From Psammoneis japonica (taxonomy: Eukaryota), in contig QPGO01000050.1 in assembly GCA_008632985.1 (NCBI GenBank), forward strand, positions 248,001-312,000: a stretch of 64,000 nt of DNA. Direction: 5' to 3'. Below the pieces are notes generated by a model. The model had not been told where the DNA came from and searched no databases. It worked only from the letters and a program-made list of their open reading frames with translations. A program made the position numbers and the translations under genes. Below, piece by piece: positions 26,819 to 64,000 of the stretch (positions are counted from its first letter, which is position 1; every line of letters starts with the position of its first letter).

Positions 26819-27829
26819 AACAAACAATGCAGTCGAACACCAAAAATCATTCAATTCATCCCAGTCTCTCAACACAAATGCAAACAAGCATGATTGGTTT
26901 GGTGTGGGCACCCTCTTTTTGATTGGCAGGGAGATCATGGGAAGAAAAAACCAACTGGGCCCTGCTGTGGTTGTTCCTGGGCAGAGAAAAGAGTTGCTTG
27001 CTCTCTCATGCCATTGCTTGTGCCACAAAAGTGCACTGCTAAAAAACAACAACAGTTGGTCAATTTCATGTCAGCAACACAAAAACAAAACAGTGTGGGT
27101 GGTTTGGTTGGGTGACATCCAATGGCTGATGACAGCAAAACTGGCCATCACAAGTTGAAAGTCTCCAGAGCATCGCAAGAATCTGTCAGACATGTGGGAT
27201 GTCAAGCACCTCCCTCACATGTGTGGTGCCCTGTGAGTGCAACCCAGTGGGTGACAGCATGTCAACACTGACTGCAAACTGTTTTTGTTTGTGCCACAAG
27301 GAGGGCTTGAGCAGAGGAGAAAAAGTGGTGCCAAGTTTTGGAGAAACACCAGACTGGGTTGGGGCGAACAGCCGCCACACCCACCACACCAAGCAGAGTG
27401 TAAAAACACAGAGCAGCAGAAAAGTGGTGTGTGTGTGACAGCCGTGATGGTGAAGCTGGCAGCTTGTGATTGGATCGTGTGCTTGAGACAACATGCAGCG
27501 CAAAATGATGGGCTGCTCTCCTGGAGCACATTGTGTGGTGTGTCTGTGTCGCTGTGGCAGTTGCACAAGAAAACAACAGCAGCTATCTGCACATTTGGTC
27601 TGGTGCATGATGAGATCCAATGTTGCCATTGTCAAGCCCCATGTTTGATTTTCAGATCATGGGAGAACAGCTGCAGCAGGGCGAGGTGTTGGAGAAAAAG
27701 AGCAGGGGAGGAATGTGTCATGCTGGCGGTGGTGGCTCAAGCAAAACAACAAGAGCACACCAAGTGCCAAAAACATCAAATCATGCAACAGGGGTTGAGC
27801 GGTGCACTTCTCCATCCAAGCACAACACA

Positions 27830-30790
27830 GAAAAACAAGCATCACTGGCTCAGTGGCAAAATCCAACGTTGCCATCTTTGGGCCTCGTGCTCGATTCACG
27901 GGTGATGGGGGTGACAATGTTGCATCAGATGGGCAGAGCCAGGTGTCTGTTCATTGTTTGGAGCTCTCTGCAGAGATCACATGATGCGCTCATGTTCGAT
28001 TCACAAAATGCTTTGTTTGGGTTGCTCAAGTCTCGCCTGCAATGCAACAACAAAACAAGCAGTGCCAATGATTCAGTGGTGAAATCCAATGTTGCCATTG
28101 TCGGGCCCCATGTTTGATTCATGGTTGGCGGGAATGACAATGTTGGATCAGACAGGCAGAGCCAGGTGTCTGTTCATCATTTGGAGCTCTCTGCAGAGAT
28201 GACATGATGCACTCGTGCTCAACTCACAAAAAAAATTGTTTGAGTTGCGCAAGTCTCATCAACTGCCCAACAACATGACAAGCAGCACCGATGGTTTGGT
28301 GGTGACATCCAACGTTGCCATTGTTGGGCCCCATGTTCAATTCACGGTTGGCGGGGGTGACAACATTGCATCAGATGGGCAGAGCCAGGCGTCTGTTCAT
28401 TGTTTGGAGCTCTCTGCAGAGATCACACGATGCACCCGTGTTCGACCCACAAAGTGCTTTGTTTGAATTGCTTGGGTCTCACCTTTGTCTCAACAACAAA
28501 ACAAACAGTGCCAATGGTTCAGTGGCAAAATCCAACATTGCCATCGTTGCCATCGTTGGGCCCCGTGTTCGATTCACGGTTGGCAGGACGGGCAATGTTG
28601 GGTCAGATGGGCTGTTCATCTGGAGCTCCCTGCAGAGATCACACGATGCACCCGTGTTCGATTCACAAAAAACAGCGTTCACATGATGCAACTCTTACGT
28701 TCATGTCAACACCGAAACAAACAGCACCAATGGCTCAGTGGTAAAATCCAACATTGCCATCGTTGGGCCCCGTGTTCGATTCGCGGTCAATGGGGTGGGG
28801 TGACAATGTTGGGTCACTTGATGCAGCAAACAAGTGACATGAGTCTCCTTGCTCATCTCATCAGCCTGTGTTCAATTCACACAGATGACAGTGTTTGGAT
28901 CATGGGCTGCTCACTCACACGCCAATCAAGTCATTGTTTCTTCAGCCCGGGTTCGACTCAAGTGACACGAGTCTCCTCATTCATCTCATCAGCCCACGTT
29001 CAATTCACATGGATGACACTGGGTCCGTGTTCGATTCTTCACAGCATGCAGAGATTGTGCAATGTGACACTCCTTCCGTTGTCAGCTGAAAAGCGAAACG
29101 CACCATTGGTTCAGTGGCAAAATCCAACGTTGCCATCGTTGGGCCCCGTGTTCGATTCACGGATGATGGGGTGGGGCGACAATGTTGGATCACTTGATGC
29201 AGCAAACAAGTGACACAAGTCTCCTCGCTCATCTCATCAGCCGCCCATGTTCAATTCACACAGATGACATTGTTTGGATCGTGGACTTCTCAGTGAATGC
29301 AGAAATTAAGTTGCACAACTTTCCACCCACGACGTGTTCCAGTCCCAGGTGACACACAAAACGACAATCGATTTTGAACACAAATTGTGCATCCATCAGT
29401 GTGCGAAGCATTTTCACACAAAACACTTGAGCGGATTGGCTTTCATGGGCATCTGGAGCACGAACAATTGTGAAGAATTGAACAGTTTTCTGTGGGGTGT
29501 GAAAGTCCTCATGGGACATGTGTCGTGAACTTCCTCAGCAGACTCAATGCTGATTGTGCATCACCAGTCTTTACACTGAGATTTCTTTGCAGGTGGAAAA
29601 CACACCAAGAAGCATCGCAGGAAGACACGCTTGGTTGACATCCAAATGGATGCGTTCCAGCCCTGGGTGGGAGCTCGCAGCACTGACGTGTGACAACAAC
29701 AATTTTTGTCATCCGTCGCATGTTTCGTGCGCAGATTTCTGCATGTGACATTTAAAAAAAATTGTCCAGACTCGCTGTTTTGCGAAGCCCCAGAAGTTTT
29801 ACATGACAAATTTGTAGAAACAACAATGTGCCAGCTGCGTTCTTCAATGTCGGAAGAATGCAACTGGCCAAGTAAAAAATGATGTGCTTCAATCATGTGC
29901 GAGTTTGTGCGTTCGCAAAATTGCCTCATTTTCTGTTGGTGATCATTGGCATTTTAATTGCCGTGTGATTTTGCTGCGGAGCTCGCACATGAAAGTCTGC
30001 GGGCCCAATGTCACACGGATTCCCACCTGTGTCTGGAACGCGCCAATGATTGCAATGATTTTGCCGAAAATCATCCCTTGTGTTGCAACTCATTTGGTGC
30101 AATGAAAAACATTGATGGCACAACAACAATGATTTTGCAACACTCGCACGAGTCTTGTCAGTGTTGCAAAACAATGGAACTTGAGTGAGCCCATGCTTTT
30201 GGTGGTGAAAAACCGTTCGCAAGTCAGAGACCGCACAAAAATCGCGCAAATGTCGTTTTTGTGCACGATTTGGGTCACGTGCAGCTGGAACACGTCCCAC
30301 ACTCAGCAAAAAAAGCAACAAGCACCACTGGTTTAGTGGTGAAATCCAACGTTGCCATCGTTGGGACATTTTTACGTACGTGTGCTTTGTGTAGATTGGG
30401 CACGCGCACCAAATTTTGAAAGCACGCCACGCACGCACTCCATTGTCACTGGGCCCGTGTTCGACTCACAGCTGACAGGGTTTAGATTGTGTTACATTCC
30501 TTCATCTAACAGCTGAAAAGCAACAAGCATCATTGGTTCAGTGGTAAAATCCAACGTTGCCATCGTTGGGCCCCGTGTTCGATTCACGGATGATGGGAAT
30601 GACAATGTTGGATCATGCATGTGCAGCCTCCAACGTTGCCATTGTCGCTGGGCCCGTGTTCGATTCACAGCTGGCAGAGGTTAAATTGCACAACTTTCTT
30701 TTACCAATCAGCACAAAAAGCAACAAGCATCATTGGTTTAGTGGTAAAATCCAACGTTGCCATCGTTGGGCCCCGTGTTCGATTCACGGA
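27830..30790. repeat. 223-bp tandem repeat array plus dispersed partial units
   Basis: Core gtgg(ta/ca/tg)aaatccaacgttgccatcgttgggccccgtgttcgattcac at 27853, 28076, 28299, 28522 (223-bp spacing), 28738, 29114, 30336, 30541 and 30741. Confidence 0.9.
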
Positions 30791-30809
30791 TGATGCATCC
30801 CAGGCTTAG

Positions 30810-33800
30810 GCGCCTGTGCTTTTTGTTTTTTTTGTTTGCGCGCATTCAATCGTACGTGCGTTGTGCGTACATCGAACGTTGGCGATGATGATGATTCAAA
30901 AAACCTCGAGCGAGCGAGCCAGCGCGATCCAAGAAACTTTTTCCTTCCTTGCTTTCCCTTGGTCAATTGGCCAACCTCGCTCAACGACATGTCAATACAC
31001 ATCAAACATACACCGGTTCGTACAAGTGCACAAAACACAACATGAACATCGACACGATTCTTTATTGCGTTCATTGCGTTCTTGCCTATCTCCTGCCCTG
31101 TTCTTCATTCTGAATTCGATGTATTTTGTAGAATCCTCATGATGCGACTTGCTTTACAAGTTACAAGTGTGATAAAAATGTCTCTATGCAGTATTGATTT
31201 GTTTCCTGATCGGTATTTAGCAGCGGATGTACCCGTATGTATCACAAATGAAACGCTCGAAAAATGGTAAGGCAACGATGTTATATATCTTGTTTGTCAT
31301 GGGCATCTTACACTATTTGCTTTGTTTGTATTTTGTATATATGTTATTGCTTGCATGTTCATATGCTTTGAGACGTGCTGCTTGCTTCGATTTACATTTC
31401 ATTGCTGCTCGAACCGTTTGTTCTTTGAATATGGTGAGTATGCAACACACAATGAATCACGAGGACAACAAATACATTTTGTGCACCTAACAAGTACTCT
31501 TTTTTCTCTTTTGCAGACAATCAATGATGATGGTCCAAGTCTATCCTCCAAGAACGCCGCTCTGATTGAAGCGTTGCGCGTGTTAAAGAATTTGACAATC
31601 TTTCCCATCTGTGCATTTGGATCTACAAAGAAAGGCCGCCGAACGACTCGTACCTTATCAATCTAGCGTTGTCGTCATAAGTCAATACTTTGTGGTGTCG
31701 AGGTGCCAGCGAGTTACAGGAACTTCAAAAGCACCCCAAGACGCACGTCCTCAAGACTCAAGACACACCTCTACATGCCCATGAAATTCAAGTTCTAGTG
31801 CAAAACAACAATGTACGGAGTAACATCATGTTGTGGATGTCGAGATGATGCCGACAAAAAACCGGTAGTACGAGGACAGACTGTCCGTGACTGAGCTGGC
31901 GGGATTGATGACTAGAAAAAGATCCACGAAATTGGCGCGCCGGAATTCTCTCGGTCATCAATCTCAAAATCGACGAAAAGAAGAGGAGTGTCTCATCGAG
32001 CGCTGCTTTGTTTTTTGACTGCTCTTTGTTAGGTAAGCATTTATCTCCATTCATATCAATGTCTTGTGTGGTTTATACTTTGAATATGATTTTCTCTTAT
32101 CGTGTGTGGTTTGTCGTCGCGCCGATCGTTTGAACACAAGAGTCGACTCCATCGGCACACGAGGTGCGTCGGACGTCAAGTGACTCGTCGCGACAGTATC
32201 ATACCAACAGCCTTATCCCAAGGTGAGTATTGAATCGATACAATGCTATTCTTCAATCTCCTCTTTATATAAAATGTATTGCTCATTGATTGTTTTGTTC
32301 CGTGTTGATTGTTGGTTCGATATCGTTCAGAGTTTCGGAAACGATCGTATTGCAATACAACACGCACGCTACACTCGGCTCGGCATTGGTGTCGGTATAC
32401 CAATCGCTATCATTCGACACGGTGAGAACTCAATCACATTATTATTCATACTGAATTCTTCTTTTGTTTTTGATTTACTTCTAACCATTCGTCGTTTGTT
32501 GTTGTGAATGCCGAATGATTCGCACGTGATTCTCACAGGAGCTAAATATATCGCATCACGATGCCTCCCAAGCAGCAAATACCCATGGCCAAAGGACAAA
32601 GGACACTTGGTGCCTTTTTTAGTCCCCGTGCCAAAGCCAACAGAACGACTACCACGACCGCCAAGACCCCAGCCAATGCGCAACCAAAACGAAAAGCGGC
32701 AGAAACGCCTGCAGGCAGGAAGGCCAAGGCACCCAAAATTACTGAATTGTCCACTGCGCCAATCAGTAGTTTCTTTCAGTCTCCACCACCTGCTCGTACC
32801 GGTACTCTCAAGACGCCTTCTACTATTGTTGCCGACTGTCGTCCTGCTAGCGACGAATCCTCAACCAAGAATGCCGATACTACCGGTACCAAGTCCAACA
32901 ACGATGCTGATTCATCTACCAGCCCATCTGACTCCATTATTGCTACAAATGGACTGTCATTGGAAACAACTTTGAAAGAAGCAACCGCGAATAGTAGCAA
33001 TGCCAACAGTTGTGAGGACGACGAATCGTATATTCCAGAAGAGCTTGACCCGCCGCAACAAAAGGAGGATGATGCTGAAGACGACGATCGTGTTGATCTG
33101 ACTCAAAGTGCCAAGGACCATTATCGTAAATATTTCATCATGCCCATCACTGGCGAAGAAAATGCACGCCGTATTGCTTTGCCATACCAACGAGAGGCGG
33201 TAAAGATCTTGATTCGTGAGAATGCTTTTATGGACGTAAAGGGCGACTTAGCTGGAATTCTGGTCAAGAAGCCACTTGCTGGAACTTGCATTGTTTATGC
33301 TGAAGTCAATGAATCGCCTTGTGTTGTGTTTCGAGAACCCGGCAACGGCATGGAGGTGGAGGTGCGCAAAGTGGGAATGACGAGTAACGGCAAGCGTCGA
33401 GAAGCCGACCGACTCCGCCAAGGGAAGATCAGCAGTACGGACCAGTTATCAAGCTTGTAGACATTGCTAACCTCCCCCCTCATGTTGAGAAAGAGATACT
33501 GAAAGCTGCTGTAATGCCTTGCTTGAAGGACCTGTCGACGGATCCAAGCTTGCACCCATTCCAACGGCATTTTTTCTCGGGGATTCTCGAACGCGGCGCG
33601 GATGTTTTGGGCTTCCTGGGACAGTTCATGTACCAAACTATCGAGTCGGGATTGCAAGACTATTATGGCGTTGGGGGTCCTTGCGAGTATCTAATGTTTT
33701 CTCCTGCCATTGTTGATCGGTATTTTGCTGAAGCCGAGATGCATGCGAGAGAGATTTTGGACGACATGGATTGCATTGTCAAGGCCATGGCACATGCTGG

Positions 33801-35300
33801 CTCGGCTCCCAGAATTCATGGAATGGGCTCATGGAACACTGGTAGCCAAGCCAAATTCTCGAGCAAGATGGTCACTCTCCAAAGCATTGTTGGTCAAGAG
33901 AACAGCTTGTCGGACACCTTACCTGAACCAGTCTACCCGAACGCCAAGGGTGCTGATCAGGTATTTTCTCAAGACTACAAAGAAAGAGAAAAGGCAGAAG
34001 GGCGTGCATTTTTGGTAAAGTTTTTGACTGAGTGGTTGAGAGAGCAGGAGACGCCCGGTGTGGTTGTTCTGGACACAAACAAAGTGCTGTATCAAAACCT
34101 GGATGGACTCTTGGACATGCTATCAGCTCAACGCTTTGTGACGATTCGAAGTGTGCTTGACGGCGAGGCAACGGTTAAGCTATACAAGGATGCACCGCAT
34201 GGGGTTCTGGTCAACAAACCGTTGTGCTACGCCAGTGACAGCCGCCAAACTACCCCGCTGGAGTACAAGGCACGCCGCGCATTGACAGCTGCCATTCTCA
34301 CCAACGTTTGCCGTGGCCTCAAGGGACAGGCTTTCCTCTCTGTCAAGGACCGTTTCGAAAATCCAATTTATGCTGCCATTGCATTCCAGATTGGCACCAT
34401 TGGCTGTCATCAGAACCTTCGCCTTTGCAGCGCCTTTTTCCGTGACTTTGAAACGCCCGAAGACCAGTTTCCCTTGAAAGACAATGGACTCGGCAAGTGC
34501 ATTCCTGGTGGACCGTTGGTGCTGAGGAACCGGAAGAAGACTCATCCAAATCGCCAAGAAGAAATTGCCAACGCAGTCCGCAGAGTGGACGCAGACTTTA
34601 TCACCAATGCACGGTCCATCATTTGCCAAGCTAAGAGTGGGGAAGAACGACAGCTTTGTGAGAGCTTGTATGAACTCTGCAAGCAGGGAAATGGCGCAGA
34701 TCCAGATTCAAAGAGCAAGAAGTTTCTTATGTACATTCCCGATGAAATCGTACCCGGTTCGGAGTTCTTGCGCACGATGAAGGACCACTGGGAACAAGTC
34801 AGAGAAAACACGGGGAATCCAAATGCAAGGGGTTGTACAAAGGTAGAGCTCCACTACAAAGCCAGCCAGTTGGCAGAAATCATTGAAGATTGCAAGCCGA
34901 GAGAGGGGAAGCGAGGAATTCCGTTTTGGGTGAAGGAGACCATGAACTCTGTCGAACCTCCGACACCCTCCAAATCCAACTGCCCATTCCACAACTTTGG
35001 GGCTGACTCGGTAAAGTGTGAAGGCCACGTGCACAGCTCGTTTCGGGGTCCGACCAAGGAACTGCTTGTGTGCAAGGATGGTCATCAATGCAAAGTCAAA
35101 CGCATCATGACGAGGAGCAACAAGTCGATCGGAGTGAAAGCTGCCATGCCAGGAAAGGAGCCACACTTGCTTGTTGAGCTGGTGGTTGATTGAACCTTGT
35201 GAATGCAAACAAGGTGCTGCAGCACAGTGGGGTGTTGCAGACTCTGCTGTAGAGAAGCAGTCTAGCCACTGGACCGTGCTCGGAGTGGGACTAGACAGCA
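30810..35300 (+). mobile_element. Unclassified ~4.4-kb repeat family, copy A (largely unmutated)
   Basis: Collinear homology with 42697-46872 + 53700-54030 and 58340-62740. Shared marker gagcgagc..gatccaagaaactttttccttccttgctttcccttggtcaa. Ends are approximate. Confidence 0.75.
32561..35193 (+). CDS. Repeat-encoded hypothetical protein (~880 aa once a 1-bp deletion at ~33446 is repaired) with an N-terminal PIP box
   Basis: ORFs 32561-33460 and 33514-35193. Paralog C reads through the junction (DQFVKLVDIANLP). QRTLGAFF at residues 13-20. Confidence 0.7.
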
Positions 35301-35324
35301 CTCTAGAGTGGACACATGTCTTTT

Positions 35325-35630
35325 TGTTTGTCATGGGCATCTTACACTGTTTGCTTTGTTTGCATTTTGCACACATGTTGTCACTTGCATCTTGCATGTT
35401 GACATGCTTTGAGACGTGCTGCTTGCTTCAATTTACATTTCATTGCTGGTCGAACCGTTTGTTCTTTGAGTGTGGTGAGCATGCAACACACAATGAATCA
35501 CGAGGACGACAAACACATTTTGTGCACCTGACAAGTGCTCTTTTTTCTCTTTTGCAGACAATCAATGATGATGGTCCAAGTCCATCCTCCAAGAACGCCG
35601 CTCTGATTGAAGCGTTGCGCGTGTTAAAGA
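35325..35630 (+). repeat. TpA-mutated partial duplicate of 31291-31589
   Basis: Near-identical to 31291-31589, differing mostly at TpA sites. Confidence 0.9.
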
Positions 35631-36530
35631 TTTTTTTGTTTTGGGCGGTTGTGCTTTATTGAGTTTTTTGTGCTCATCGTACGCACGTGGTGTGTGCGCT
35701 GGCGATGCAAGATTCTGCTCTCACCACAAAAGACATTCTGCTCTCACCACAACGTAGAAACGTGCCGAGCTCCATCGTAGAAAAAATGCACTCTTTGCCG
35801 AAACGGAATCTCGATCGACCTCTTCGACGCAGCCGACGCAAAAAACACTCTTGAGGTCTCTTGTCGACCATGTGCTTCTTGGAGTTTGTGAAGTGGAGTT
35901 GCTTTTTTTCACGTGGATTGCAGCCCGGAGTGGGCGCAAGGCGGAGCATTTGTTGATGCCGGTGGCAGTGTGGAGTGCAGCCCGGAGTGGGCGAAAGGCG
36001 GAGTTCTTGTTGATGCAGACATCTGTGTGTTCCACTTGCTGTGTCGTTTTCATCACACTTCTGTCGCAGCTGTTGCAGCAACCATGTCATTTGATTTTTC
36101 CCTTGTTGGAAATGATGGTTGGTGCAATGCCGCACTTCGCGATCACGATGATGTCAACGGGAGAAGCAACGAGGCTCACAACGTCAACGAAACAGCTGTC
36201 AACCTTGCCGCATCAAGCTCCTCAGAAAGTGGCGGCAACGATGGAGAGCATGCAAATGATGCCGTCGCCTCGGCAGTTGTGGGTCAACTCAAGGACTCTC
36301 GTGATTGTGCACCCAACTCTGGCGTGACTGTCGACCTTGCCGCGTCAAGCTCCTCAGAAAGTGATGGTGACGATGGACGGCACATGAACAACAGCGTTGA
36401 CTTGGCATTTGTGGGTCAACCAAAGGACCCCAGTGATCATGCGCCCGACTCTGGCGTGGCATCCAAAGCAGGCAAGGACAGTGTTGTTGTCTGAGGCTTC
36501 AGCAAGACACCTGTTGCTCACAATTGTTCC

Positions 36531-37361
36531 TTGTTTGTCTTGTTTCATTGTGTTGCAGCAGCTGCTGTTTCACTGCCGGCACCCCAAGATGCCCCTTCTG
36601 ATGGCCATGACCACACCAGAGATTGGTCCCCGTTGTGGTCTGCTCCGTCGCCCGACTTGGCAACGCAGCATTCGAAAAAGCCTTCTGATGCCAAAAAACA
36701 AATCATCGAATTGTGGAACGCCCCGGATGGATTCAAGTTCCTTGTCAACTCGAAGGCAGTCATAAAACGCTGGGACTGTGCAGACCATGGATGCCCGGTG
36801 CAGGTAAAGACCAAGCGCTCCGGCTCAAAACTTGTCAAAGAGCAACGAGGACCACACAACCACCCCCCACCCAGAGGGTTGTCTGCGAGCGCGAGGAACA
36901 CGCGTGCCCCAGCACACAAATGGGCGGTCAATGCGGAGCTCTCGGACTGCCTTTTGCGGCATGTGAACAATGTGGAACGAAAGATTCTCGACAAGTGTGA
37001 GGTGGAAGATCCGGTGGCACTGGATCAAAAGTTGCGTCCAGTGAAAGCATTGCGCACCACTGCCCCTCATGTCAGGAATGCAAGTGCATGCTCAAACACC
37101 ATTTGCCACCTTCTCCCAACAGAGTCTGGTGGTTGTTGCCTTCCTTCTTGCGTCAGGCCAATTGTCAAATGTCCAGGTGTCACGATCCATTCTCCAAAGA
37201 AGTTTGCCGTGGTGAAGGAGAGTGCCAATGTGACAGCAGCAGCATTGCGCCACTGCCGTGCGGCGCGGGATGCTGCAACACCAAAGGTGTCAGCAAATGG
37301 ACTGCCCAGCTCTTGGTGGAGTGCAAGCGTCAGAAAGACAAAGATGTTTGTGAATCTCTGA
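36531..37361 (+). pseudogene. MULE internal ORF with WRKY/FLYWCH-like Zn finger, TpA-mutated
   Basis: KRWDCADHGC...GPHNHPPP (W-x-C-x4-C...H-x-H). Confidence 0.55.
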
Positions 37362-37616
37362 TTTTCGGACTGCAGTGTTCTCTGTTGTGGCAGCAAGAAG
37401 TGACGTGATGCAATTGTTGATCACACGCCGCACAACAACCCGTGCATCTTCTGTCATCCGCTGGTGGCTCGCACAATTTCGAAACGTGTTTGACAAGATC
37501 CGTTGCGGGGGACTGCGACATGCGTGACCACGCTGTCGATTTCGATCCGTGCGCCAGATGACCAACTGTGCATGCTCACCAAGATCTGTTGATCACAATT
37601 CGCGCTGCAGACAAAG

Positions 37617-51558: not shown

Positions 51559-52640
51559 TCATTTCCGAGCATTTTTCGTAATGGATGGAACTGCATTGCC
51601 GATTTCTTTCTTCTTGCACTGAGTGGCAAAGTCACGAAGCCTGGCTTTCCACATGGCCTCAAAACGATCCCTTGTGGCCTTGCTTTTGCCAGAATCATCA
51701 GCGGCAGAAACCACACGATCAATTTTCACACATCTTAAAAGAGTCTCATTGACATGTGTTGCACGCATTTGTTCTCGCTTGACATCGAGCATCACTGGTC
51801 GCATGGGCTTTTCCCAAGAATTTTTGTGTTGGTGGAACAACGACTTTACGAATTCAGGGAAGGACATGGGGCACTCGTCTTTGGTCGTCTCACAGTGACC
51901 AAGAGCCAGGAAATTCTCCAAAAAGTCAATGCAAGTCAATGTCTTGTCACATTCGCCGAACAGGGAGCAAAGCCAATGATTGCAATCACCACTCCTTTCA
52001 GGTGCGTGTGGCAGAATCTTGTCACAAAGAATCAAAAAACCAATGTGAAGGCATTGTGCGTGACGCAAAACCTTCCCTTCAAAACTTCTCAGCTCAATGT
52101 GCTTGACAAGTGGCTCTCCCTTTGGGTCACACAATCTGGGATCATGGAGAAGCTTGCACAACATGGAAATCTTTGCCATCATGTTGGTTGCAATGTCTGT
52201 TGATTTTGCCTTGTCGCCGACGACTTTCACATCCTCTGCTTTGGGAGCACGGCGACACTCCAACGCATGAGGATGTTTGGTGCCTTGACTGGAACAACTC
52301 CATCCTTTTGCGGAAAGAAAGTGCAGCAAGCTCTTGTGCCCAAGTGCCTTTGCAACAATGTGGTTCACAGCCATCAGTTCTGCAAAAAAATGAGGTCTGC
52401 CCTTCGACTTTTGCCACACACAGGCAAGCGCGATCCAATTCGGAGAGGGATCACAAGTGGAATCGCGGTGGAGCTGAACCTTGGATTTCACCATCTCGAT
52501 TGTTGCTTTGACACGGCTCCGCTCGTTGCAGTTGATCACTCCAAAACCATTGGCAAAGAGAGATTCAAGTGCGGCCTCCTCGAGGCAGGAACCATTGTTG
52601 TCTTGCGACAGAGAGGCAACCGACAGGTCACGCGGCGCCA
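51559..52640 (-). pseudogene. Degenerate ORF inside the Plavaka element
   Basis: Long Tyr-free, Cys/His-rich ORF lying between the TIRs. Confidence 0.35.
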
Positions 52641-54389
52641 TGGTTGCTGTTCCAACACCAAAAAATCTGGTTTCTGCAGAAACACACCAGAGTGGTGCGT
52701 GGGAGAAGTTGCACACGTGCCTGGTGGGATTTGGAGTTTTAAACACAAAAACCCGCGTGACTTCTCCCAGGGAAATCCTGCGTGAGATTGTGCCGGGAAA
52801 GGGCAATGCGGAGTGCAGAATTGATGGAAGAAAACATTGTGCAAAACAGCATCAGGAGAAAGGGTGCATGTGCTGGAAAACAACATGGATTTCTGCATGC
52901 ACGTTAAGGTGCGTGAAGAACACGTGGGTGCCTTCAAGTGACGCATGCGAACAATCACAAAGAAACACTCGGAAATGGAGACAGCATGGAGAGAAGTCAG
53001 AAACATGGATCCAAAACAAAGTGACACACAACAGAAAAAAATGCAACAACAACAAGAGACGATGAAGGCAACGGCGACGGGATCGATGAAAAAGAAGGAT
53101 TCGGATGGAAAGACACCAGAGACGGTGAAAACAGGCGGCGCCAAGATGAAGAAGGAAGAGAAAAATGGGACAGACAAAATGAAGAAAGAGAAAAAGAAGC
53201 CAACGACACGACGTCAAGAGGGGAGCAGCGACGCGATTCTGCACTTCGAGGGACCTCTTCCTCTTGATGATGTTCACCCAAATGCAAGAAATGCAGTGTG
53301 GCTTTTTTGGAACGGTGACGAGGAAACATCCAACGTGGCAGCGGCACATTTGAAATTCTTGCAAGAGAGCAGACAAGACATGTGGAATGAAGAGGACGAC
53401 ACGGACGACCAGGCAAATTGGAGCACAGTCATTGATCAAACAATTGGTGCACACTTTGCATGATGAAAATTTCATTGCATGCAACTGCAATGTTTGGCTT
53501 GTCGTTAAAGATCGTCAGTTGTTGTGAAAAAGGCAGAGCACAAAAATTAAAAACGAATCTGTGTTCAAACATGAAGAATGGCAGGAGATTGACAATTGAC
53601 CAAATGACAAAAACCGTCATGTGCAGACAAGTGGATTTTGTGATGTGGCAATGTGTTTTTGTCATGCGTGCAGATGTTACGATGTCCTGCACTCTGATGC
53701 AGTCAAACCTCCGACACCCTCCAAATCCAACTGCCCACTCCACACCTTTGGGGCTGACTTGGCAAAGCATGAAGGCCATGCATGTTGCTCATTTCAGGAC
53801 ATGGACAAGAAGCCACTGGTGTGCGAGGATGGCCATCAACACAAAGTCCAGCGCATCACAATGAGGAGCAACAAGTTGATTGGAGTGAAAGCAGCCACAC
53901 CCGGAAAGAAGCCTCACTTGCTTGTTGAGCTGGTGGTTGATTGAACCTCGTGAATGCAAGCAAGGCACTGTGGTGCAGTGGGGTGTTGCAGAATCCAATG
54001 TGGAGGCAGAGAAGCAGACTGCAAACAGCACCAGCAGAGGAACATTTGCGTGGCTCTGCTCCGCTGGAGAAAAATGTGGCAGACTGAAGGCAGTGCTGTT
54101 GCATCACCCAATGAGCACTCGTCTGCCATCCTTTGTGTGGAGTCTGGCATTTGACTGCTGGCATTGCAGCAGCATTTTCCAAGCTGATCCTTTGCCAACT
54201 CTCTTTCTCTCTGCTCTGCCCTGCTGCAGATGTTTGGATGTGGACGGCTGCACTTTTTGTCTTTTTTTGTGCCCATCCCCGGCAGCTCATCAAACAGTGT
54301 GGGCAAAGCTGTGTGACAACAACATTCAAGCAAACGGTCATTCCTTGAGCAAATCTCCATTGGGTTGCTTGCCACTTTGCAAGCCACAC

Positions 54390-57300
54390 AAGGGAAGTTT
54401 GTGAGCTGTGTGATGCAGCTTTTCATTGCTTGCCCTTGTGCAGCTTGTGACTTCATGAGCTGCACAAGAGAAGTTTGCAATCTGTGCAAGGCATTGTTTT
54501 GCACACTGCATGATGACATTCAATCAATCACTTGACATGAGTCATTGTTCAACACAATGAAACAGACCACATGACGGCAGCAACAGCTGATGCTAGATTG
54601 TGCCGCCAAACCTTTTCCCGCCAACAACAACAACACATCACATGCCACATTTTGCGCTGACAAGCATGTCCATGAAAAGAGAGGTAAGATGAAGTCCAAA
54701 AAAATGGGCAAAACTCCTTCTGTGCTTTTCTTGCTGTTGTTCATGCTTGAATCTCACAACTTCAACAGCTGATGCCACTTTGCTGCCAAACTTTTCCTGC
54801 CATCAATGCCAATGCATGACACGCTTCATCACACTTGGAAAAGCACACATGAGAAAAGAGAGGTGAGAGAAAATCCAGAATGGACAAAGACACTCATTCT
54901 GAGATTTTGCTGTGAGACATTCACTGGACTCTTTTCTCACAACTGTCGCATTTCAATTTGTTCATTCTCAACAGGTTGAAGAGTGCAGAAACCATTGTGC
55001 AGATGATCAAGACTCTTTGCAGTGCCAAGTGTTGGGAAGCATTTGTCAGGCTGGCAAGCACAGCAGAGTGAGGCAGACTGGAGGGAGTGACAACGATGAG
55101 GAGGAGCAAGCAAAAGGGGATCAGGGATGACCAAAGGGTGTGGAATGCCACTCAAGACATCGTCAATGGCACAGCAGAGGGAAATGAGTCTGCCATCTAA
55201 ATGGACATGAGAACAAATTGTCCAGGAATTTTTCCCAATTGAAGTGATGCAAAATGGAAGCAACAAGCTCACGACCACCAGCTGTGCATCAATGAAACTT
55301 GAGCACAAGACTGACCCTGTCAAATGGCCCTGTCTGCTGCACAGACAGCAACCTGAAGAATCTGCACTTGCTGAAAAAATCATTGCAGGAACAGCCAACA
55401 TTGTGACAGACAGCTTGTTCAACAAAACTGCAGCAATGGCAGATGTGATGCTGTTGCCATCAGAAGGTCACTCACACCAATGTCACAGTGTCAATCATGC
55501 TCCAGGCAGGGAAAGTGATCAGAGTGCTTGTCGTGGGGAGCTGGGAGGCATCTGTTGGATTTTCCACAAATTCACTCTCTCTTGCACTTGACACGCAGCA
55601 TCTCACATGGCAGAGTCATCCTGGGCTGTGATTGCCACCTGGCACTGCAAAAACCTTCTACAAAATTGCAGCATTTTGGATGGGTGCATCAAAGAAGAAT
55701 TTGGGAATTTGGCAACCGCCCCCCAGCACCTCCAACCACCATCTGGCATGGTGGCTCACCAGACCAGAAGCAGCCCTGGCAGAAGACCAGGACTGCAAAA
55801 GACATCAGCCAAAAGCAACGTCAGTGGCAAGAACAGTCATTGCTGCATTTTTGATGTTGGTTGGGAATCCAAGATGATTTTCAGTTGTGCAGGAGTGTTT
55901 CTGCCCACAAAGCTGCAAATGCTGGGTTGCACTTGTTTTGCATTGCATGTGTGCTCTGACCCTGTTCATGGTTGCGGATTAAATGGCATGTCAGGCATTG
56001 TTGAAAGCTTGGCATGGGCAGCAGTCAGGAAGGGCTGTGCAAATTTCAGGATTGAATTGAGTTGAGTTGTTGTCGTGCAATTGTTCCAACACTTTAACAT
56101 CCGGGTCACAATGTTGCAAGCTGCGCAAGGAAGTTTGCAAGCAGCACAACGCGACTTTTCATTGCTCACCCTTGTGCAGCTTGTGACTTTGTGAGCTGCA
56201 TGAGGGAAGTTCACAAGCTGCACAAGGCATCGTTTTGTGCACTGCATGACAACATTCGATCAATTGCTTGACATGAGTCATTGTCCACAATGGCAAATTC
56301 GTGCGCACGACTCCCAGACATCGCTCACTCAAAACAACACAATGAAACAGACCACATGTCAGCAGCAACAGCCGATGCTAGATTGTGCCACCAAGCCTTT
56401 TCCTGCCACCATCAACAACACATTGCATGCCACATTTTGCTCTGACAAGCATGTCCATGAAAAGAGAGGCAAGATGAAGTCCAAAAATGGACAAAACTCC
56501 TTCTGTGATTTTCTTGCTGTTGTTCATGCTCGAATCTCACAACTTCAACAGCTGGTGCCACTTTGCTGCCAAAACAATGCCAATGCATGACATGACGCGT
56601 TCCAGGTCTGGGTGGGACCTCACACTGCTGAGCTGTGACATCGACAGTTTTTTGAATCATGTCGCATGTCGCGCACGTAGATTTTGTGATTTTTTTGACA
56701 TTTTGTGTCATTTTGCGGCACCCTTGTTGAGCGATCCGTCCAACAACTTTTGACATTTTTTGTTGCAGCGCAATTCTGTGATGTCTTAAGAATCACGTGG
56801 GGCAGGTGCATTTGCAAAAACGCAGAGTGGCAAGAGGCACAATTGCACCACAAACTTGGCTGTCTGTTTGATGTTGAAGACAAACACATTCATCAATTAA
56901 ATTCTCATGCTGCGGAGCTTGCATGCAGAATTCTGCGGGCCCAATGTCACACGGAGTCCCACCCAGGGCTGGAATGCGTCACATCATGCTTCAACACATT
57001 TGGAAAAGCACACATGAGAAAAGAGAGGTGAGAGAAAATCCAAAATGGACAAACACACTCATTCTGAGATTTTGCTGCAAGACATTCACTGGACTCTTTT
57101 CTCACAACTGTTGCACTTCGATTTGTTCATTCTCAACAGGTTGAATGGTGCAGAAACCATTGTGCAGATGATCAAGACTCTTTGCAGTGCCAAGTGTTGG
57201 GAAGCATTGGTCAGGCTGGCAAGCACAGCAGAGTGAGGCAGACTGGAGGGAGCGACAACAATGAGGAGGAGCAAGCAAAAGGGGATCAGGGACGACTCAA

Positions 57301-58270
57301 GGGTGTGGAATGCCACTCAAGACATCATCAATGCACAGCAGAGGGAAATGAGTCTGCCATCCAAATGGACATGAGAACAAATTGCCCAGGAATTTTTCCC
57401 AATTGAAGTGATGCAAAATGGAAGCAACAAGCTCGCAGCCACTTGGCTGTGCATCAATGAAACTTGAGCACAAGACTGACCCTGTTGAATGGCCCTGTCT
57501 GCTGCACAGACAGCAACCTGATGAATCTGTGCTTGCTGAAAAAAATGTTGCAGGAGCAGCCAACATTGTGGCAGACAGCTTGTTCAACAAAACTGCAGCA
57601 ATGGCAGATGTGATGCTGTTGCCATCAGAAGGTCACTCACACCAATGTCACAGTGTCAATCATGCTCCAGGCAGGGAAAGTGATCAGAGTGCTTGTCATG
57701 GGGAGCTGGGAGGCATCTGTTGGATTTTTCACAAACTCACTCTCTCTTGCACTTGACATGCAGCATCTCACATGGCAGAGTCATCCTGGGCTGTGATTGC
57801 CACCTGGCACTGCAAAAACCTTCTGCAAAATTGCAGCATTCTGGATGGGTGCATCGAAGCAGAATTTGGGAATTTGGCAACCACCCCCCAGCACCTCCAA
57901 CCACCATCTGGCATGGTGGCTCACCAGACCAGAAGCAGCCCTGGCAGAAGACCAGGACTGCAAAAGACATCATCCAGAAGCAGTGTCAGTGGCAAGAACA
58001 GTCATTGCTGCATTGGAGTTTGATTGGAAATCCAAGATGATTTTCAGTTGTGCAGGAGCATTGCCACCCACAAAGCTGCAAATGCTGGGTTTTGCACTTG
58101 TTTTGCATTGCAGGTGTGCTCTGACCCTGTTCATGGTTGTTGACCAAATGGCGCATCAGGCATTGTTGAAAGCTTGGCATGGGCAGCAGTCGGGAAGGGC
58201 TGTGCAAATTTCAGGATTGAATTGAATTGAGTTGTTGTCACGCAATTGTTCCAACACTTTAACATCCGGG
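54390..58270 (+). repeat. Tandem duplication (~1.75 and ~2.15 kb units) of a non-LTR retrotransposon fragment with an RNase H-like domain
   Basis: Units at ~54390-56110 and ~56125-58270 are collinear. Both encode IVxDSLF..PGRESDQSAC(R/H)GELGGI..GRVILGCD, i.e. RNase H SAYRxELxG with Y->C. Confidence 0.7.
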
Positions 58271-58339
58271 TTGCTTTGGTGTGTTGACTCTTGTTGTGCT
58301 CGAGTTGAGTCAATCAAAATGCTCTGCCCACACCAGGTG

Positions 58340-61300
58340 AAAAATGGTGCGTGCGCTGGTGATTCAAAATTGTTGAACCATCCACGCAGTCGAGCGAGCG
58401 AGCGCAATCCAAGAAACTTTTTCCTTCCTTGCTTTCCCTTGGTCAACTGGCCAACCTCAACATGTCAATGCAGTGCACAACAAACATGCACCGGTGCAAG
58501 TGCACAAAACACAACACAAACATCGACGCGATTCATTGTTGCTTGCATTGAGTTCTTGCCTTTCTCCTGGCCCATTCGTTGCTCTAAATTCAACACATTT
58601 GGTGGAATCCTCATGGCGCGACATGCTTTGCAAGTTGCAAGTGACAGCACTGTCTCCATGCAGTGTTGATTTGTTTCATGATCAGCAATTGGCAGCGGAA
58701 GTGCCAGCATGCATCACAAATGAAACACTCAAAAAATGGCAAGGCAACAATGCCACATGTCTTTTTGTTTGTCATGGGCATCATGCATTGGATGAAATTC
58801 AACATGCAGAGGGGAGACATCACACGTCGTGCATTGTGCCTCATTGACTGCAAAATGGCCACTGTGTCATCGCCAGTGACAAGAAAAGCTGCGTTGCACA
58901 ACAATGTCGACGAACGGCACTGATCAGAGTGGTGCCTTAATTTCTGTGTCTTGCTGTGCCATTGGATCTGCAGAGAAAGGCCGCCAAACAACTCACACCT
59001 TGTCAATCTGGGGTTGTCATCATGGGTCTGTCATTTGTGGGGGGTGATGAGGTGCCAGCGAGTTGCAGAAACTTGAGACGCGCCTCATGACATGCCGGCA
59101 CCCCAAGATGCACCATCATTCAACATCGAGCTTCTTGTTTCAGTTGAGTGGCCACTGGGTGGTCCATTCAAAGATGCACCTTAAGACACCGGCAGACAGT
59201 TGTCAGAATGGACATGCAACAGCAACAGGTGTGGTGCACTCACCTGTCAGTTTCTGTGACCATGACTCACACAAGACCCAGATCATGTGGCAACATTCAT
59301 GACAAATGTTGGCAATCATGCAACTTTTTTCTGGTGCATTTTCCCTTCACTTCTTTTGCAACATGCAACAAGACGAGACCTGTCACAGTGCTCTTGTTGT
59401 TGCCCTTGCTGTTGGTGAGATTTGTCTTTTGACCTGTTCAATGCATTGTCTCATTCTGTTGTCAATGTCATGCTCACTCACATTGACTTTTGTTGTTGTT
59501 TGCTGTGGATTCATGCCAAAGCCAGGCCAAGAGAACATGATGTGAAACGCTTTGCTCTGCTTGGCATTGGCTGTGCTCAATGTCACAACAATTCAATGTG
59601 GCAAGCTGTGCTGTTGATGAGATTGCTCTGCTTGTGTCGTTTGCATTTTGGGTGTGATTCTCATTTCTTGCATGTGGTTTGTCATCATGCTGATCATTTG
59701 AGCGCAAGAGTCAACTCCGCCAGCACATGAGGTGCATCAGACATCAAGTGACTTGTCGCAACAGTGTCATGCCAACAGCGTCATCCCAAAGGTGAGTTTT
59801 GAATTGACACAATGCTGTTCTTCAATTTTCTCTTTACAAAACATTGCATTGCTCATTGACTGTTTTGTTCCGTGTTGATTGTTGGTTCGATGTTGTTCAG
59901 CATGTCAGAAACAACAGCATTGCACAATGCAATGCACACGCTGCGCTCGGCTTGGCATTGGTGGCAGTGCACCAATTGCCATCATTCAACATGGTGAGCA
60001 CTCAATCATGTCATTGTTCACATTGGGTTCTTCTTTTGTGTCTGATTTGCTTCTGACCATTCATCGTTTGCTGTTGTGATGCCAAAGGACATTCACGCCG
60101 CAGCCAAATGTGTCGCATCACGATGCCCAAATGGCACAAGCCCCTGGCCAAAGGACAAAGGACTGTTGGTGCCTTTTTTGGCCCCTCTTCCATGGCTGAT
60201 GCGGCAGCTGGCATTTCAAGCAAGTTTGACCCTTCAACCACCAGGGGAGCAAATCTCCGCCCGCTCCACTTGAGGATGTGTGACGTGTCATGCACTTTTA
60301 CAACAACACAGTGAACATGGCATTAAAATGTCATGTCATGCACAATCTGCACAAAGCACACCACGTGCACTTGCTTGTTGGGAGCAAATCTCCACCGGCG
60401 GAGATTTGCTCCCAGGGTGTGGCATTTGTGACAACCTCCATTGTTGAAGGTTGAGATTTAGCTCCTCTTTGTTCACAGATGAAGCTTGCAAAAAAAAAAA
60501 ATGGGTGTTGAAAGGCAACATTGAACTTTCTAAATTGCAAAAAGGGTGCCTCCAGATTTTCGGCAAATGTGCGCTCCAGAACAAAATTGCGTGAATGAAA
60601 TGTTGTGCACATCTGAAATTACTTCATTTGCTGTGTTTGTGACACAAGCAAGCAAATCTCCACCCGTGGAGATTTGCTCAAGTCCAGTGGTTGAAGGGTT
60701 GAGACGACTGCCAGGATGACTCCTGCCATTTTGCTGCCGCTGAAGTGAAAAGCAGCTGATGCACCGGCAGCCAGAAAAAAGTCCAAAATGCCCAGATTGA
60801 CGGAGCAATCCACACTGCCTGTCGGAAGTTTTTTCCAGAGTCCACCACCCGCTTCTGCTCCCAAGACACCCTCTGCTGTTGTTGCCGACTGTCACCCTGC
60901 CGGCACCAGTGTTGCAACTTTGCCAGATGAGCCCACAACCAAGAATGCCGACTCCACCGGTGCCAAGTCCAACTGTGAAACTGAGCCAGCTTCCAGTCCA
61001 TCTGACTCTCCATCATTGCTGCATGTGGATTGTCATTGGAAGCAACTCTGAAAGAAGCCAATGCAAGTGGCAGCAATGTGCCAACATCATCATGGAAGAT
61101 GACGAATTGTGTGTTCCAGAAGAGCTTGACCCGCCGGAGAAGGAGGCAGAGGTCAAAGGCAATGGTGGTTCTGTTGAACCTTTGCCTCAAACTGCCAAGG
61201 ACCATTGTTGTAAAAAATTCATCATGCCCATCACTGGCAACAAAAATGCACGCCGCACTGCCTTGCCATGCCAATGAAAGGTGGCACAGATCTTGATTCA

Positions 61301-62740
61301 TGAGAATGTTTTTGTGGATGTAAAGGGCGACTTGGCTGGAATTCTGGTCAAGAAACCACTTGCTCAAAGCTGCATTGCATGTGCTGAAGTCAACGAATCG
61401 CCTTGCATTGTCTTTGCAGAACTTGGCAATGAAATGGAGGTGGAGGTGTGCAAAGTGGGAATGACAAGCCACGGTCAATGTCAAGAAGCAGACCGCAGCC
61501 GCCAAGGCAAGATCAGCAGTGCAGACCAGTTTGTCAAGCTTGTAGACATTGCCAACCTCCCCTCTCATGTTGAGAAAGAGACACTGAAAGCTGCTGCAAT
61601 GCCTTGCTTGAAGGACCTGTTGATGGATCCAAGCTCACACCCATTCCATCGGCATTTTTTCTTGGGCATTCTCAAATGCAGTGCGGATGTCCTGGGCATC
61701 TTGGGACAGTTCATGTTTCAGACCATTGAAGCGGGATTGCAAGACCATTGTGGCATTGGGGGTCCATGCGAGCAACTGGCGTTTTCTCGTGCAGTCATCA
61801 ATTGGCATTTTGCTGAAACTGAGAAGCCTGCAAGGGAGATTTTGAATGACCTGATTGCGGTTGTCAAGGCCTTGGCGGATGCTGGCTCAGCTCACAGAAC
61901 ATTTTTGCCATTTCGTCATGGAAGACTGGAAGCAAGGCAAAGCATTCTAGCATGGTTGGGACCACAAAGGGATGCATTGGTCGGGAGAACGTGTTTTTTG
62001 ATGCACTGCCAGATCCAGCCATTCTAAATGCAAAGGGAGCGGATCACTTTTTTTCCGAGGCTCACTCGTGGTTGGCAAAGTTAGATGGGAAAGCCTTGAT
62101 GACAAACAAGCTGAGCGAGGGATTGGCTGCTCAAGGAATGCCTGGGGTGGCTCTTCTTGACACAAACAAGACCACTTGTGGCACTCTTGATCTTCTGTGT
62201 GACATGCTTTCAGCACAAAAGGCTTTGCGACTGTTTGAAATTTGCTTGACGGTGATGTGATGGTTCTGCTGCACAAGGATGGGCCGCACGGGGTTCTTGT
62301 CAATTGACCCTTTAGCTGCGCTGATGACAGCCACCAAAGCACTCCATTGGAGCACAAGGCATGCCGCGCATCGACAGCTGCCATTCTAACCAACGTTTGC
62401 TGTGGCCTCAAGGGACAGGCGTTCCTCTCTGTGGAGGACACCCACAACCTTTCCTCCTTCTGTGGCCACCACAGTCTGCACGCAACTTGGCCTGCCATCT
62501 TGGTGCCAGCTTTGTGATGATTCGAAGTGGGCTTGATGGCGAGATGATGGTTGAGCTGTGCAAGGATGCACCGCGTGGGGTTCTCGTCAACAGACCGGTG
62601 TGCTGCGCTGGTGACAGCCGCCAAAGCACTCCATTGGAGCACAAGGCACGCCACACATTGACAGCTGCTGTGCCAACCAACGTTTGCCGCGGCCTCAAGG
62701 GAAAGGCACTCCTCTCTGTTGAGGAACATTTCGAAAATCG
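58340..62740 (+). mobile_element. Unclassified repeat family, copy C (TpA- and CpG-mutated, internally rearranged)
   Basis: Homologous to copy A (KGQRTVGAFF; QILIHENVFVDVKGDLAGILVKKPL). The 3' block is duplicated at ~62100-62430 and ~62510-62740. Confidence 0.85.
60230..60698. mobile_element. Non-autonomous piggyBac-type element, 469 bp
   Basis: Termini CCCTTCAACCAC / GTGGTTGAAGGG, flanked on both sides by TTGA (60226-60229, 60699-60702). Absent from copy B at ~44572. Internal gcaaatctcc..ggagatttgc hairpins. Confidence 0.8.
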
Positions 62741-64000
62741 AGTTGCAAGTTCTCGAAATTGCTGTCCTGTTTTGGTGGAACACGAACGCCATGACGGAAC
62801 ATTGGTTGCCAAAGTGAACTTTGAGGGGAAGAATGAACTGCTTTTCAAAGAAGTGAGGCATTTGAAGTGGCCAGGGCTTGAACGCAAGATTCCTCGTACG
62901 CTGACTCTTGCATCCGAAGAATCCATGTCGTGCTGTCCTCCTGCCATTGACATCAAGAAGACCATGAGCTGTCACCACAGGAGCTGCAAATGAGTGGCTG
63001 TGCAAGTGCAACAAACTCATGGCAGCAAGACAAGAAGTTGTTGCATGACAGGACCAAGTCAATGCAAGAAATGCAAAAGGGAGGGTGTGTCATGTGCAAA
63101 ACAAAGACAGCCAACTGCTGCATGGGGTGTCACATGCATTGATGCAATTGCTCCTCCACAATGAAGGAAAGAGTGTGCAGGAGTTTGCCATGGGCCCCAT
63201 CCTTTGCCATTTGCAGCTGTGACAAACAATGCATCCAGCCCAGTTGCATGTGAATTTTCCACACCAAACTTTGGCACCAAAACAGAAAGAGAAGAAGTTC
63301 ACAGAACATTGGTGCCACAAAGCCAATGACTGTGCATCCATTCTAGATGCTTGCTTTGCTCAAGGGCACCACGCAGCTCTGCACCCAGATGCACAGCAGT
63401 GCCACAATGATTTTAAAGACAAGCAAACACACATGGGGCACCAGTTTTTTTAATTCAATGCAAACCCATCAAGAGTGTTGTCTTTTGCAGTTGGCTGCCT
63501 TTGCTTGGTGCAACCCCCCTGCACTTTCATTGCATTTTGGTTGGTTGCCATGCAAGGTTTGTGCAGCACTGCTGTGGACATGTGAAAAGCTGCTTTGGGG
63601 TCACATGCTGATGAGGATGACCAACAATGCACAAATTTTGAGGCAACTGTTTGGAAGAACTTAAAGAAATTGCCACATCAACTGCGACCCAACCCAACCA
63701 TCAACTGTGGCAACAGCCCCAGTTGAGCCAGTGCAATGCTGTGTGACAAGATGTGCAATGTGCAACAAATGCAAAAGTCATGAGAGGCATCAGAGCAAAA
63801 AAGAGGCAGCACAATTCTGCAACAATGGAAAGTGCTGCAGAGTTGCGTGCACAAGCCCTCTGACAGTTTCTCTGTGCATTTGCACAGATTTCACACAAGC
63901 AGCCTCCTCACAGGGGGGTCCCATTCACTGGCCCAAACAAACTCTTTCTTGGACACAAAATGTTTTTGACAATTGCCAGCTTGGCGGAGACAGGTTTGGA

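Follow-up and report, generated by a model that had tools for sequence, protein, structure and literature searches.

A 64,000-nucleotide stretch of the genome of the diatom Psammoneis japonica (assembly GCA_008632985.1, contig QPGO01000050.1, positions 248,001 to 312,000; "the window" throughout) contains long blocks of repetitive, apparently silent DNA in which the dinucleotide TpA (TA) is almost absent and CA and TG abound. We favour, with moderate confidence, an explanation in which these silent repeats have undergone TpA-specific A:T→G:C hypermutation by a repeat-directed enzyme, probably through adenine deamination, as a genome defence like that of the chlorarachniophyte Bigelowiella natans.

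Extent of TA depletion

The observed/expected ratio (o/e) of TA in 2-kb windows is 0.49-0.74 across the gene half (1-26.8 kb), 0.03-0.25 at 28-30 and 34-40 kb, and 0.02-0.07 in each window of 44-64 kb, with CA and TG elevated (o/e 1.4-2.15) in the TA-poor DNA, including 44-64 kb. These values agree with the initial annotation, made from the letters alone, which had described TA as nearly absent and CA/TG as abundant over most of 26.8-64 kb and the gene half as normal. At a scale of 500 bp the two distributions do not overlap, the 260 windows of the gene half having a minimum of 0.22 (median 0.56) and the 210 windows of 42.5-64 kb a maximum of 0.159 (median 0.033).

The depletion is organized in three TA-less blocks, none of them assigned to a strand, at 26819-29500 (TA o/e 0.00-0.07 per 500 bp), 35750-39450 (0.00-0.14) and 42500-64000. 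Over a summed length of 27,884 bp these hold 75 TA, where base frequencies predict ~1,804, and the gene half used for comparison holds 1,078 in 26,499 bp. Between the blocks lie two TA-normal islands, one at ~30.7-33.5 kb, followed by a gradient down to 35.7 kb, and one at ~39.67-42.3 kb with borders sharp to ~100-300 bp, as well as two partly purged zones (29.5-30.7 and 33.7-35.7 kb). The second island contains a minus-strand gene (exons 41753-41496, 41194-40754 and 40637-40154), which is expressed and spliced: in a 1306-bp contig of sequencing run X2 (a run with RNA-like behaviour), stretches of 116 and 301 bases are missing, each bounded by GT..AG when read on the minus strand. This expressed gene is spared, with sharp borders to the purged blocks.

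Most of the comparisons below use a repeat family found by self-BLAST. Its copy A (30900-35300, +) is TA-normal in the 5' part and progressively purged toward 35.7 kb (o/e 0.7 to 0.07), and copies B (42650-47000) and C (58350-62800) both lie within the third TA-less block.

Polarity of the change

Several lines of evidence place TA as the ancestral state and CA/TG as derived. Copy A carries two open reading frames (ORFs; 32546-33457 and 33388-35190, +), the second encoding 601 aa, and 40 homologues of this longer product served as protein outgroups, scored at the residues that differ between copies. Copy A matched more outgroups at 100 of the residues that separate it from copy B, against 38 for B and 23 ties (sign test, 1.3e-7), and the comparison with copy C gave 135 for A, 49 for C and 23 ties (sign test, 1.7e-10). 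Pure TA-type codon differences gave the same preference for A (11 vs. 2 with 5 ties against B, 6 vs. 2 with 2 ties against C). All 16 Tyr codons of copy A are non-Tyr in copy B; at Tyr197, for example, 30 of 37 homologues have Tyr and the other 7 Phe, and the codon is TAC in A and CAC in both B and C. Toward the 3' end, two of the columns rich in Tyr are already Cys and His in copy A itself.

A second reference is provided by six tRNA-Gly(GCC) copies located between 27839 and 30797. Two genes that keep their TA steps (30516-30797, +) serve as the reference state for four decayed copies (27839, 28285, 28508 and 29099, predicted by ARAGORN), on which a 223-bp tandem array (27832-28549, TRF) is built. 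Two copies keep the D-loop GGTA, as in the Rfam consensus UGGUA, and the others read GGCA (three) or GGTG (one); at a second site, four copies have TTCAG and one has TTTGG in place of TTTAG. Against the Rfam tRNA model, the copies in the TA-bearing zone score 56.2 and 41.9 bits and the copy at 29100 (GGCA) scores 35.1 bits, and the three copies deeper in the TA-less block were not recovered by Rfam at E=1, so that the array looks like a gene cluster turning into pseudogenes.

When the direct repeats that flank copy A (31290-31593 and 35324-35634) are aligned over 304 positions, 21 differences appear, 13 of which are TA in the left repeat and TG or CA in the right one (8 CA and 5 TG, interleaved), with none in the opposite sense; of the remaining differences, 2 are CpG-related and 6 are of other kinds. 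The count of TA accordingly falls from 16 on the left to 3 on the right, where the survivors are TTAC, TTAC and TTAA. Lastly, at 30 sites where copies B and C conflict as TG vs. CA, copy A has TA. The initial annotation had named outgroup support for ancestral CA/TG as the result to look for against it; outgroups, tRNAs and direct repeats all point to TA instead.

Specificity, strand and flanking context

Among 147 TA of copy A aligned to copy B, 115 are converted (61 to CA and 54 to TG) and 5 are still TA, and among 134 aligned to copy C, 55 are TG and 40 CA. TA in A is paired with CG in B at only 3 sites, which argues that each site was hit once. These counts bear out the proposal first made from a few paralogous sites, namely that one TA resolves to either TG or CA through A:T→G:C change on either strand, and the two examples then given are found at 33493/45438/61578 and 33658/45603/61743 with the letters as claimed. 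The copies thus record a heritable A:T→G:C hypermutation that is highly specific to 5'-TA-3', a palindromic step. The wording "adenine-mutating" goes further than the letters allow, since a hit on the A of TpA and a hit on the T paired with it, itself the T of TpA on the opposite strand, are inseparable by sequence alone.

Rates of A>G by preceding base, obtained by star-tree polarisation of copies A, B and C, reach 34/85 at TpA in lineage B and 36/85 in lineage C, against 0/85 in lineage A. The other contexts in lineage B remain between 0.03 and 0.05 (ApA 17/534, CpA 32/585, GpA 19/429). Expressed as change per kb, the losses are TA -38.0 and CG -27.3 and the gains CA +37.6, TG +36.0 and AA +7.3. 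Along the sequence, TG and CA outcomes do not form runs (runs tests, z=+1.07 for 115 sites and z=+0.99 for 95 sites), i.e., neighbouring TA sites are hit on either strand independently.

The flanking bases of the few remaining TA are far from random. TTAA accounts for 22 of the 75 residual TA, at 22 different places; the gene half, by comparison, has 46 TTAA among its 1,078 TA (Fisher p=1.5e-11), and the TA-normal islands have 3 among 241. CTAA/TTAG (15) and GTAA/TTAC (18) are partial survivors. Other contexts have vanished or nearly so in the TA-less blocks as compared to the gene half (ATAC/GTAT 0 vs. 156, ATAT 0 vs. 66, GTAC 1 vs. 80). The same order of flanks holds in the partly purged zones, with a retention of 0.89 for TTAA and 0 for ATAT. 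An A followed by another A (TAA) is thus a poor target, so that TTAA mostly survives; read from the thymine side, the same base pair makes T-T-A the poor target, and the two views give identical sequences. Trinucleotide gains and losses between the two halves of the window were left unused, because coding and CpG decay both confound them.

Relation to CpG decay

CpG is likewise lowered in the TA-less blocks, to a variable extent (o/e 0.03-1.0), and of 210 CG in copy A, 55 are CA and 45 TG in copy B. The TA purge is nonetheless separable from the CpG decay co-located in the same blocks, because TA is lost where CpG is intact, both within the window (35.5-36.0 and 52.75-53.25 kb, CpG ~0.9-1.1) and in two environmental contigs, L001 (TA o/e 0.02, CpG o/e 0.78) and L002 (TA o/e 0.04, CpG o/e 0.90), which are described below. 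Decay of CpG through 5-methylcytosine is alike in that a palindromic pyrimidine-purine step turns into TG/CA in silent DNA. It differs in acting on the other base pair, so that it cannot remove TA, and TA loss here is far more complete than CpG loss (o/e 0.03 vs. 0.03-1.0).

The coexistence of both processes limits what can be read from two purged copies alone, where a conflict of CA with TG may stem from an ancestral CpG as well as from TpA. Among the 104 discordances of this kind between copies B and C overall, copy A has TA at 30, CG at 17, CA at 20 and TG at 19. A pair of repeats with 92% identity within the third block (54377-56106 vs. 56114-58271) shows 22 such discordances, where 0.9 are expected from shuffled columns, and these were first read as TA steps resolved after duplication. 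That reading and the derived rate ratio of at least 130 are withdrawn: the pair shares 1 CpG and has 28 one-sided ones, and all 22 discordances are possibly CpG-derived. Equal caution is due for 16 discordances among the tandem units and for the 17 of 104 between B and C.

Timing, rate and targeting

The purge acted in place, after the copies existed, because the direct repeats, the units of the tRNA array, and copies B and C all disagree at former TA sites. It also seems to have gone on after their divergence: lineages B and C taken together show TA newly made from CA or TG at 4 of 760 opportunities, vs. 38 of 937 where identical base changes arose in another context (p=8.5e-7). Between the direct repeats, 13 of 16 TA are converted, compared to 6-8 other changes in 304 bp across both copies, which gives, as a rough figure from this one 304-bp pair, a TA conversion ~100x faster per site than background.

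All purged DNA that was checked belongs to repeat families or arrays, and the purged blocks are now single-copy at 90% likeness. The introns of the spliced gene (TA o/e 0.34 and 0.70) and the intergenic DNA at 24.0-24.5 kb (1.25) are unpurged, and the effect is therefore not common to all non-coding DNA; equal TpA loss in single-copy neutral DNA, which the initial annotation had regarded as decisive against its proposal, is thus not what these stretches display. Its broader idea of a process acting on repetitive, apparently silent DNA is supported by this confinement and by the spared expressed gene. Copy number alone is not decisive, as copy A is largely spared despite its family membership, and the simplest inference is that silencing or chromatin state decides targeting. 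Run X2 does not cover the TA-less parts and no RNA sample is listed for the stretch, neither of which we take as a sign of silence.

Mechanism and alternative explanations

The mechanism that we propose would start with an enzyme directed to repeats by their chromatin or silencing state and acting on DNA at TpA. Its most likely chemistry would be the deamination of adenine to hypoxanthine, which is read as G, and since the TG or CA product would no longer be a substrate, each TA would receive a single hit. The purge runs to near completion, stopping within ~100-300 bp at the expressed gene and grading over ~2 kb into copy A, and by removing all Tyr codons together with TAA and TAG stops it disables genes by missense and leaves long false ORFs behind. 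We rank adenine deamination first because it gives exactly A:T→G:C and because an inert TG/CA product explains the single hits. The A-to-I chemistry of the ADAT2/TadA family would give the observed transitions, and the natural tRNA target of these enzymes, A34, follows U33. More tentatively, and with less confidence than in the general proposal, one may imagine a novel DNA adenine deaminase acting as a chromatin-directed 5'-TA-3' editor (poor at TAA), an old defence common to stramenopiles and rhizarians that is still active in diatoms; this would be a second system like the repeat-induced point mutation of fungi, with the polarity reversed.

A number of observations weigh against this explanation. 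BjADAT2, the sole ADAT2 with mapped DNA activity, has 5'-GAA-3' and 5'-TCG-3' as its DNA contexts (PMC10354150). Its adenine preference, 5'-GAA-3', is opposite to the pattern in the window, where GpA is at background and a 3' A is disfavoured, and membership in the ADAT2 family is therefore unsupported. The rate estimate depends on the single pair of direct repeats and assumes that both started identical. Copies B and C agree at 50 of the TA sites of copy A and disagree at 30; some of the purging may thus have taken place before B and C separated, or context may have guided it. Repeat status may not be what directs the process, given that a member of the same family as B and C is largely spared and that 41.7-42.3 kb, where summed word depth is very high, is TA-normal in this copy. 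The strand-random pattern could also arise from many sparse single-strand events.

The most credible alternative, though in our view an unlikely one, is that the T of TpA is marked, e.g., as 5-hydroxymethyluracil (5hmU), by a TET/JBP-type dioxygenase or another enzyme, as an epigenetic mark in silent chromatin, with T→C as a by-product of mispairing or faulty repair, just as 5mC gives rise to CpG decay. The same base pair is mutated whichever partner is attacked, so every sequence result fits equally well, and the co-location of the purge with CpG decay, i.e., with marked silent chromatin, is what this alternative would expect. It also has a precedent in dinoflagellates, where 5hmU made by a TET/JBP enzyme silences transposons and is reported, in older work cited there, to prefer TA and TC (PMC11572971). 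TpC, however, is not hit in the window, as A>G at GpA (equivalent to T>C at TpC) is at background in lineage B (19/429). Pairs of 5hmU with A are, moreover, weakly mutagenic, which fits poorly with a conversion of ~97%.

Error-prone patch repair in heterochromatin by a Y-family polymerase such as Pol eta (WA→WG), which the initial annotation had put forward as a candidate, is very improbable. TA is an A>G hotspot of Pol eta, as this idea requires, but WA includes AA, and ApA is untouched (17/534 vs. 34/85 at TpA in lineage B, with AA rising by 7.3 per kb); nor does the near-complete conversion of a single dinucleotide resemble a polymerase error spectrum.

We give still less credit to ADAR-like A-to-I hyperediting of transcripts from the repeats, with reverse transcription and reinsertion carrying the edits into the genome. 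Repeats are the usual targets of ADAR, and the B. natans preprint (bioRxiv 10.64898/2026.01.13.699255) cites a 5' U as the neighbour that ADAR prefers, but editing of RNA from one strand would give a single outcome, and TG and CA are interleaved here without runs. The 13 TA changes between direct repeats of one inserted element, the like differences between tandem tRNA copies that stayed in place, and the positional gradient within copy A all speak against it as well.

A sequencing or assembly artefact, such as a modified base at TpA that is misread, is even harder to credit, although the first TA-less block opens at a C44 run and an N. To evaluate the bases themselves, Logan contigs of run X1, which contains 0.90 of the sampled words from 35001-45000, were compared with the window. 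These contigs are identical to the window along 2025 bp (37019-39043) and along 1920 bp (43862-45781), and differ from it at 1 position over 1190 bp (35856-37045), with a word depth of ~58-71 in TA-less and TA-normal single-copy parts alike. Contigs of 1-2 kb that are TA-less at normal single-copy depth argue that the loss is not an artefact of assembly or base calling, and they lack the mixture of TG and CA that misreading on both strands would give; the worry that reads might not carry the TA-less bases is thereby answered. X1 is possibly the source sample of the assembly, so that this agreement demonstrates what the reads carry rather than an independent replication. Two separate metagenome assemblies carry the same signature, and the paralogues differ at fixed sites. 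The reverse polarity, in which CA/TG would be the older state and TA would have arisen in copy A and the other TA-normal parts through C→T change as in fungal repeat-induced point mutation (RIP), has a negligible probability: majority-rule polarisation does put 70/584 "C>T at CpA" changes in lineage A, but parallel change in B and C is expected to create just such a spurious signal, and protein outgroups, tRNA consensus, direct repeats, the 30 conflict sites of B and C, and a TA level of copy A equal to that of genes all oppose it.

Run X1 also gave two observations on variation and copy number. At full depth, its contigs differ from the window at 27691, 28090, 29078, 30379, 30493, 36341, 39229, 39253, 40029 and 46278; of these single-copy differences, which number at least ten as counted among the 40 of 117 differences listed, 7 are CpG<->TpG/CpA and 3 are TA<->TG/CA, and they may represent recent mutation or strain difference at exactly the two decaying dinucleotides. 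Summed word depth rises from ~60-70 in single-copy DNA to ~3,600 to 54,000 at 29000-30300, 41700-43000 and 46300-47000, which are therefore high-copy repeats. One of these stretches includes an 8-bp microsatellite, CCCGACTG x 11.8, at 42559-42652, and sites 42249 and 42404 are TA in this copy and CA in most other copies.

Relation to known systems

The closest parallel is the TpA hypermutation of B. natans, which we suggest would be the same process. According to that preprint, mutation-accumulation lines had 230 of 231 mutations in two integrated viral regions as A>G or T>C, with all GC-biased mutations on TpA at ~6e-7 per site per generation (within ~1e-7 to 1e-6), in some lines only, and a set of coding sequences with a TpA frequency of 0.0018 was enriched in DDE and reverse transcriptase (RT) domains (Mettrop et al., bioRxiv 10.64898/2026.01.13.699255). 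The likeness extends to change at TpA only, giving TpG/CpA, to its arrangement in blocks, to the coupling of TpA loss with CpA and TpG gain, and to the level reached (a TpA frequency of 0.0027 in the TA-less DNA here vs. the 0.0018 above). The two cases differ in host, B. natans being a rhizarian and P. japonica a stramenopile, and in what is seen: the preprint followed the process in real time, in two viral regions where TA remains plentiful (rho 0.45), whereas the window presents only an end state, in which tens of kb of unclassified repeats, along with a tRNA array, are saturated.

As to novelty, the initial annotation knew of no such process in diatoms, and literature searches for one yielded no diatom description, returning only the B. 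natans preprint of 2026; the signature as such is that of this preprint. The words "flanking", "trinucleotide", "diatom" and "stramenopile" do not occur in its text (bioRxiv 10.64898/2026.01.13.699255). This window therefore adds the resistance of TAA/TTAA, the strand independence seen in the runs test, the distinction from CpG decay and the borders, together with saturation as the end state and a trace left in environmental sequence.

Fungal RIP is alike in its dinucleotide-specific, near-saturating transitions of repeats in place, its spill-over and the disabled elements that it leaves. Its polarity is opposite, as the initial annotation had pointed out: RIP turns CpA into TpA and yields AT-rich DNA full of stops, whereas the copy, outgroup and direct-repeat evidence indicates that here TpA is destroyed, G+C raised, and TAA and TAG stops removed. 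The defence that we propose would thus run counter to RIP in direction. The 5hmU of dinoflagellates shares a lineage (the stramenopile-alveolate-rhizarian group), an association with silent transposons and a reported TpA preference (PMC11572971); it is a base modification, not a mutation, and the preference for TC that older work cited there adds to TA is absent from the mutation pattern of the window, although mutations report on such a mark only indirectly.

These results would extend a mutational genome-defence signature from one chlorarachniophyte preprint to the diatoms, which are dominant marine primary producers. They also place constraints on any candidate enzyme, i.e., strict TpA specificity, one hit per site, no strand runs, resistance of TAA/TTAA, independence from CpG, and an abrupt end to the purge next to an expressed gene. 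A DNA adenine deaminase, should that be the catalyst, would have interest for base editing. Within a single genome, mutation rates may vary locally by ~two orders of magnitude. There are consequences for annotation too: TA-less DNA has no TAA or TAG stops and yields long false ORFs, profile searches fail on purged elements, and Tyr-free "proteins" are already present in public collections.

The copy A protein family and its environmental relatives

The 601-aa product of copy A has 125 homologues at E<=0.001, of which 19 at E<=1e-30 (HMMER), and one of these is an "expressed unknown protein" of Seminavis robusta; a word-index protein search with the same ORF gave no match, and a scan of viral_contigs no relative. 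Three of the 125 homologues are Tyr-free (P0189, P0238 and P0227, with 0 Tyr in 254, 204 and 89 aa, respectively). The DNA of P0189 was found in two metagenome assemblies, as contigs L001 (2381 bp, with P0189 at 1362-2123) and L002 (1170 bp). Each retains 3 TA, all in CTAA or TTAG, and L001 has no BLASTN similarity to the window. At four columns that are Tyr-rich in the outgroups, P0189 has Cys at three (outgroups 16/16, 15/19 and 20/27 Tyr) and Asn at the fourth. Tyr-free public protein entries may thus mark TpA hypermutation in other organisms.

The family has no Pfam domain, with sub-threshold similarity to GIY-YIG in 4 of 33 members and to T5orf172 in 3 of 33, and a profile search against PDB sequences found no match. 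A confident AlphaFold model of the copy A protein (predicted local distance difference test, pLDDT, 83.1; predicted template modelling score, pTM, 0.67) returned nothing at E<=0.001 from Foldseek against the PDB. Its alpha/beta core (~138-314) has middling structural matches to MoeA/MogA (Z 9.0 and 8.5), UdgX (Z 7.1), uracil DNA glycosylase (6.7 and 6.6) and thymine DNA glycosylase (5.8). The modelled core is thus tied between MoeA/MogA and the uracil/thymine DNA glycosylases, and a glycosylase-like fold is not established; if true, it would be noteworthy in an element whose bases are open to deamination.

Other features of the window

Long ORFs with 0 Tyr fill the purged blocks, including the third. 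A Pfam scan of the 183 ORFs of at least 85 aa in 26.8-64 kb had 0 matches above threshold, and the names MULE, Plavaka, piggyBac and non-LTR given to elements in the initial annotation are accordingly unconfirmed. Four weak Pfam matches, from 147 ORFs scanned at E<=0.01, are at chance level, among them APOBEC2 at 63347-63661 (+; E=0.0087, 16.5 bits vs. a cut-off of 26.8). The exon ORFs of the spliced island gene have no Pfam match, and an ESM Atlas search with the ORF at 48930-50144 returned no usable match. For a 430-aa Tyr-free ORF at 51562-52851 (-), ESM Atlas gave leads below 0.9 to QRICH1, ALOG and phage-integrase N-terminal clusters, which would suggest, as a lead only, a Crypton or DIRS-type element.

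The C44 run and its single N (26774-26818) sit exactly at the start of the TA-less DNA, and the border between the two halves at 26818 may be an assembly join. A second lone N occurs at 16546. The gene half includes a TruD ORF (10905-12611), whose best named relatives come from Nitzschia, Bacillariaceae, Pseudo-nitzschia, Cylindrotheca and Seminavis, at 58% identity or less.

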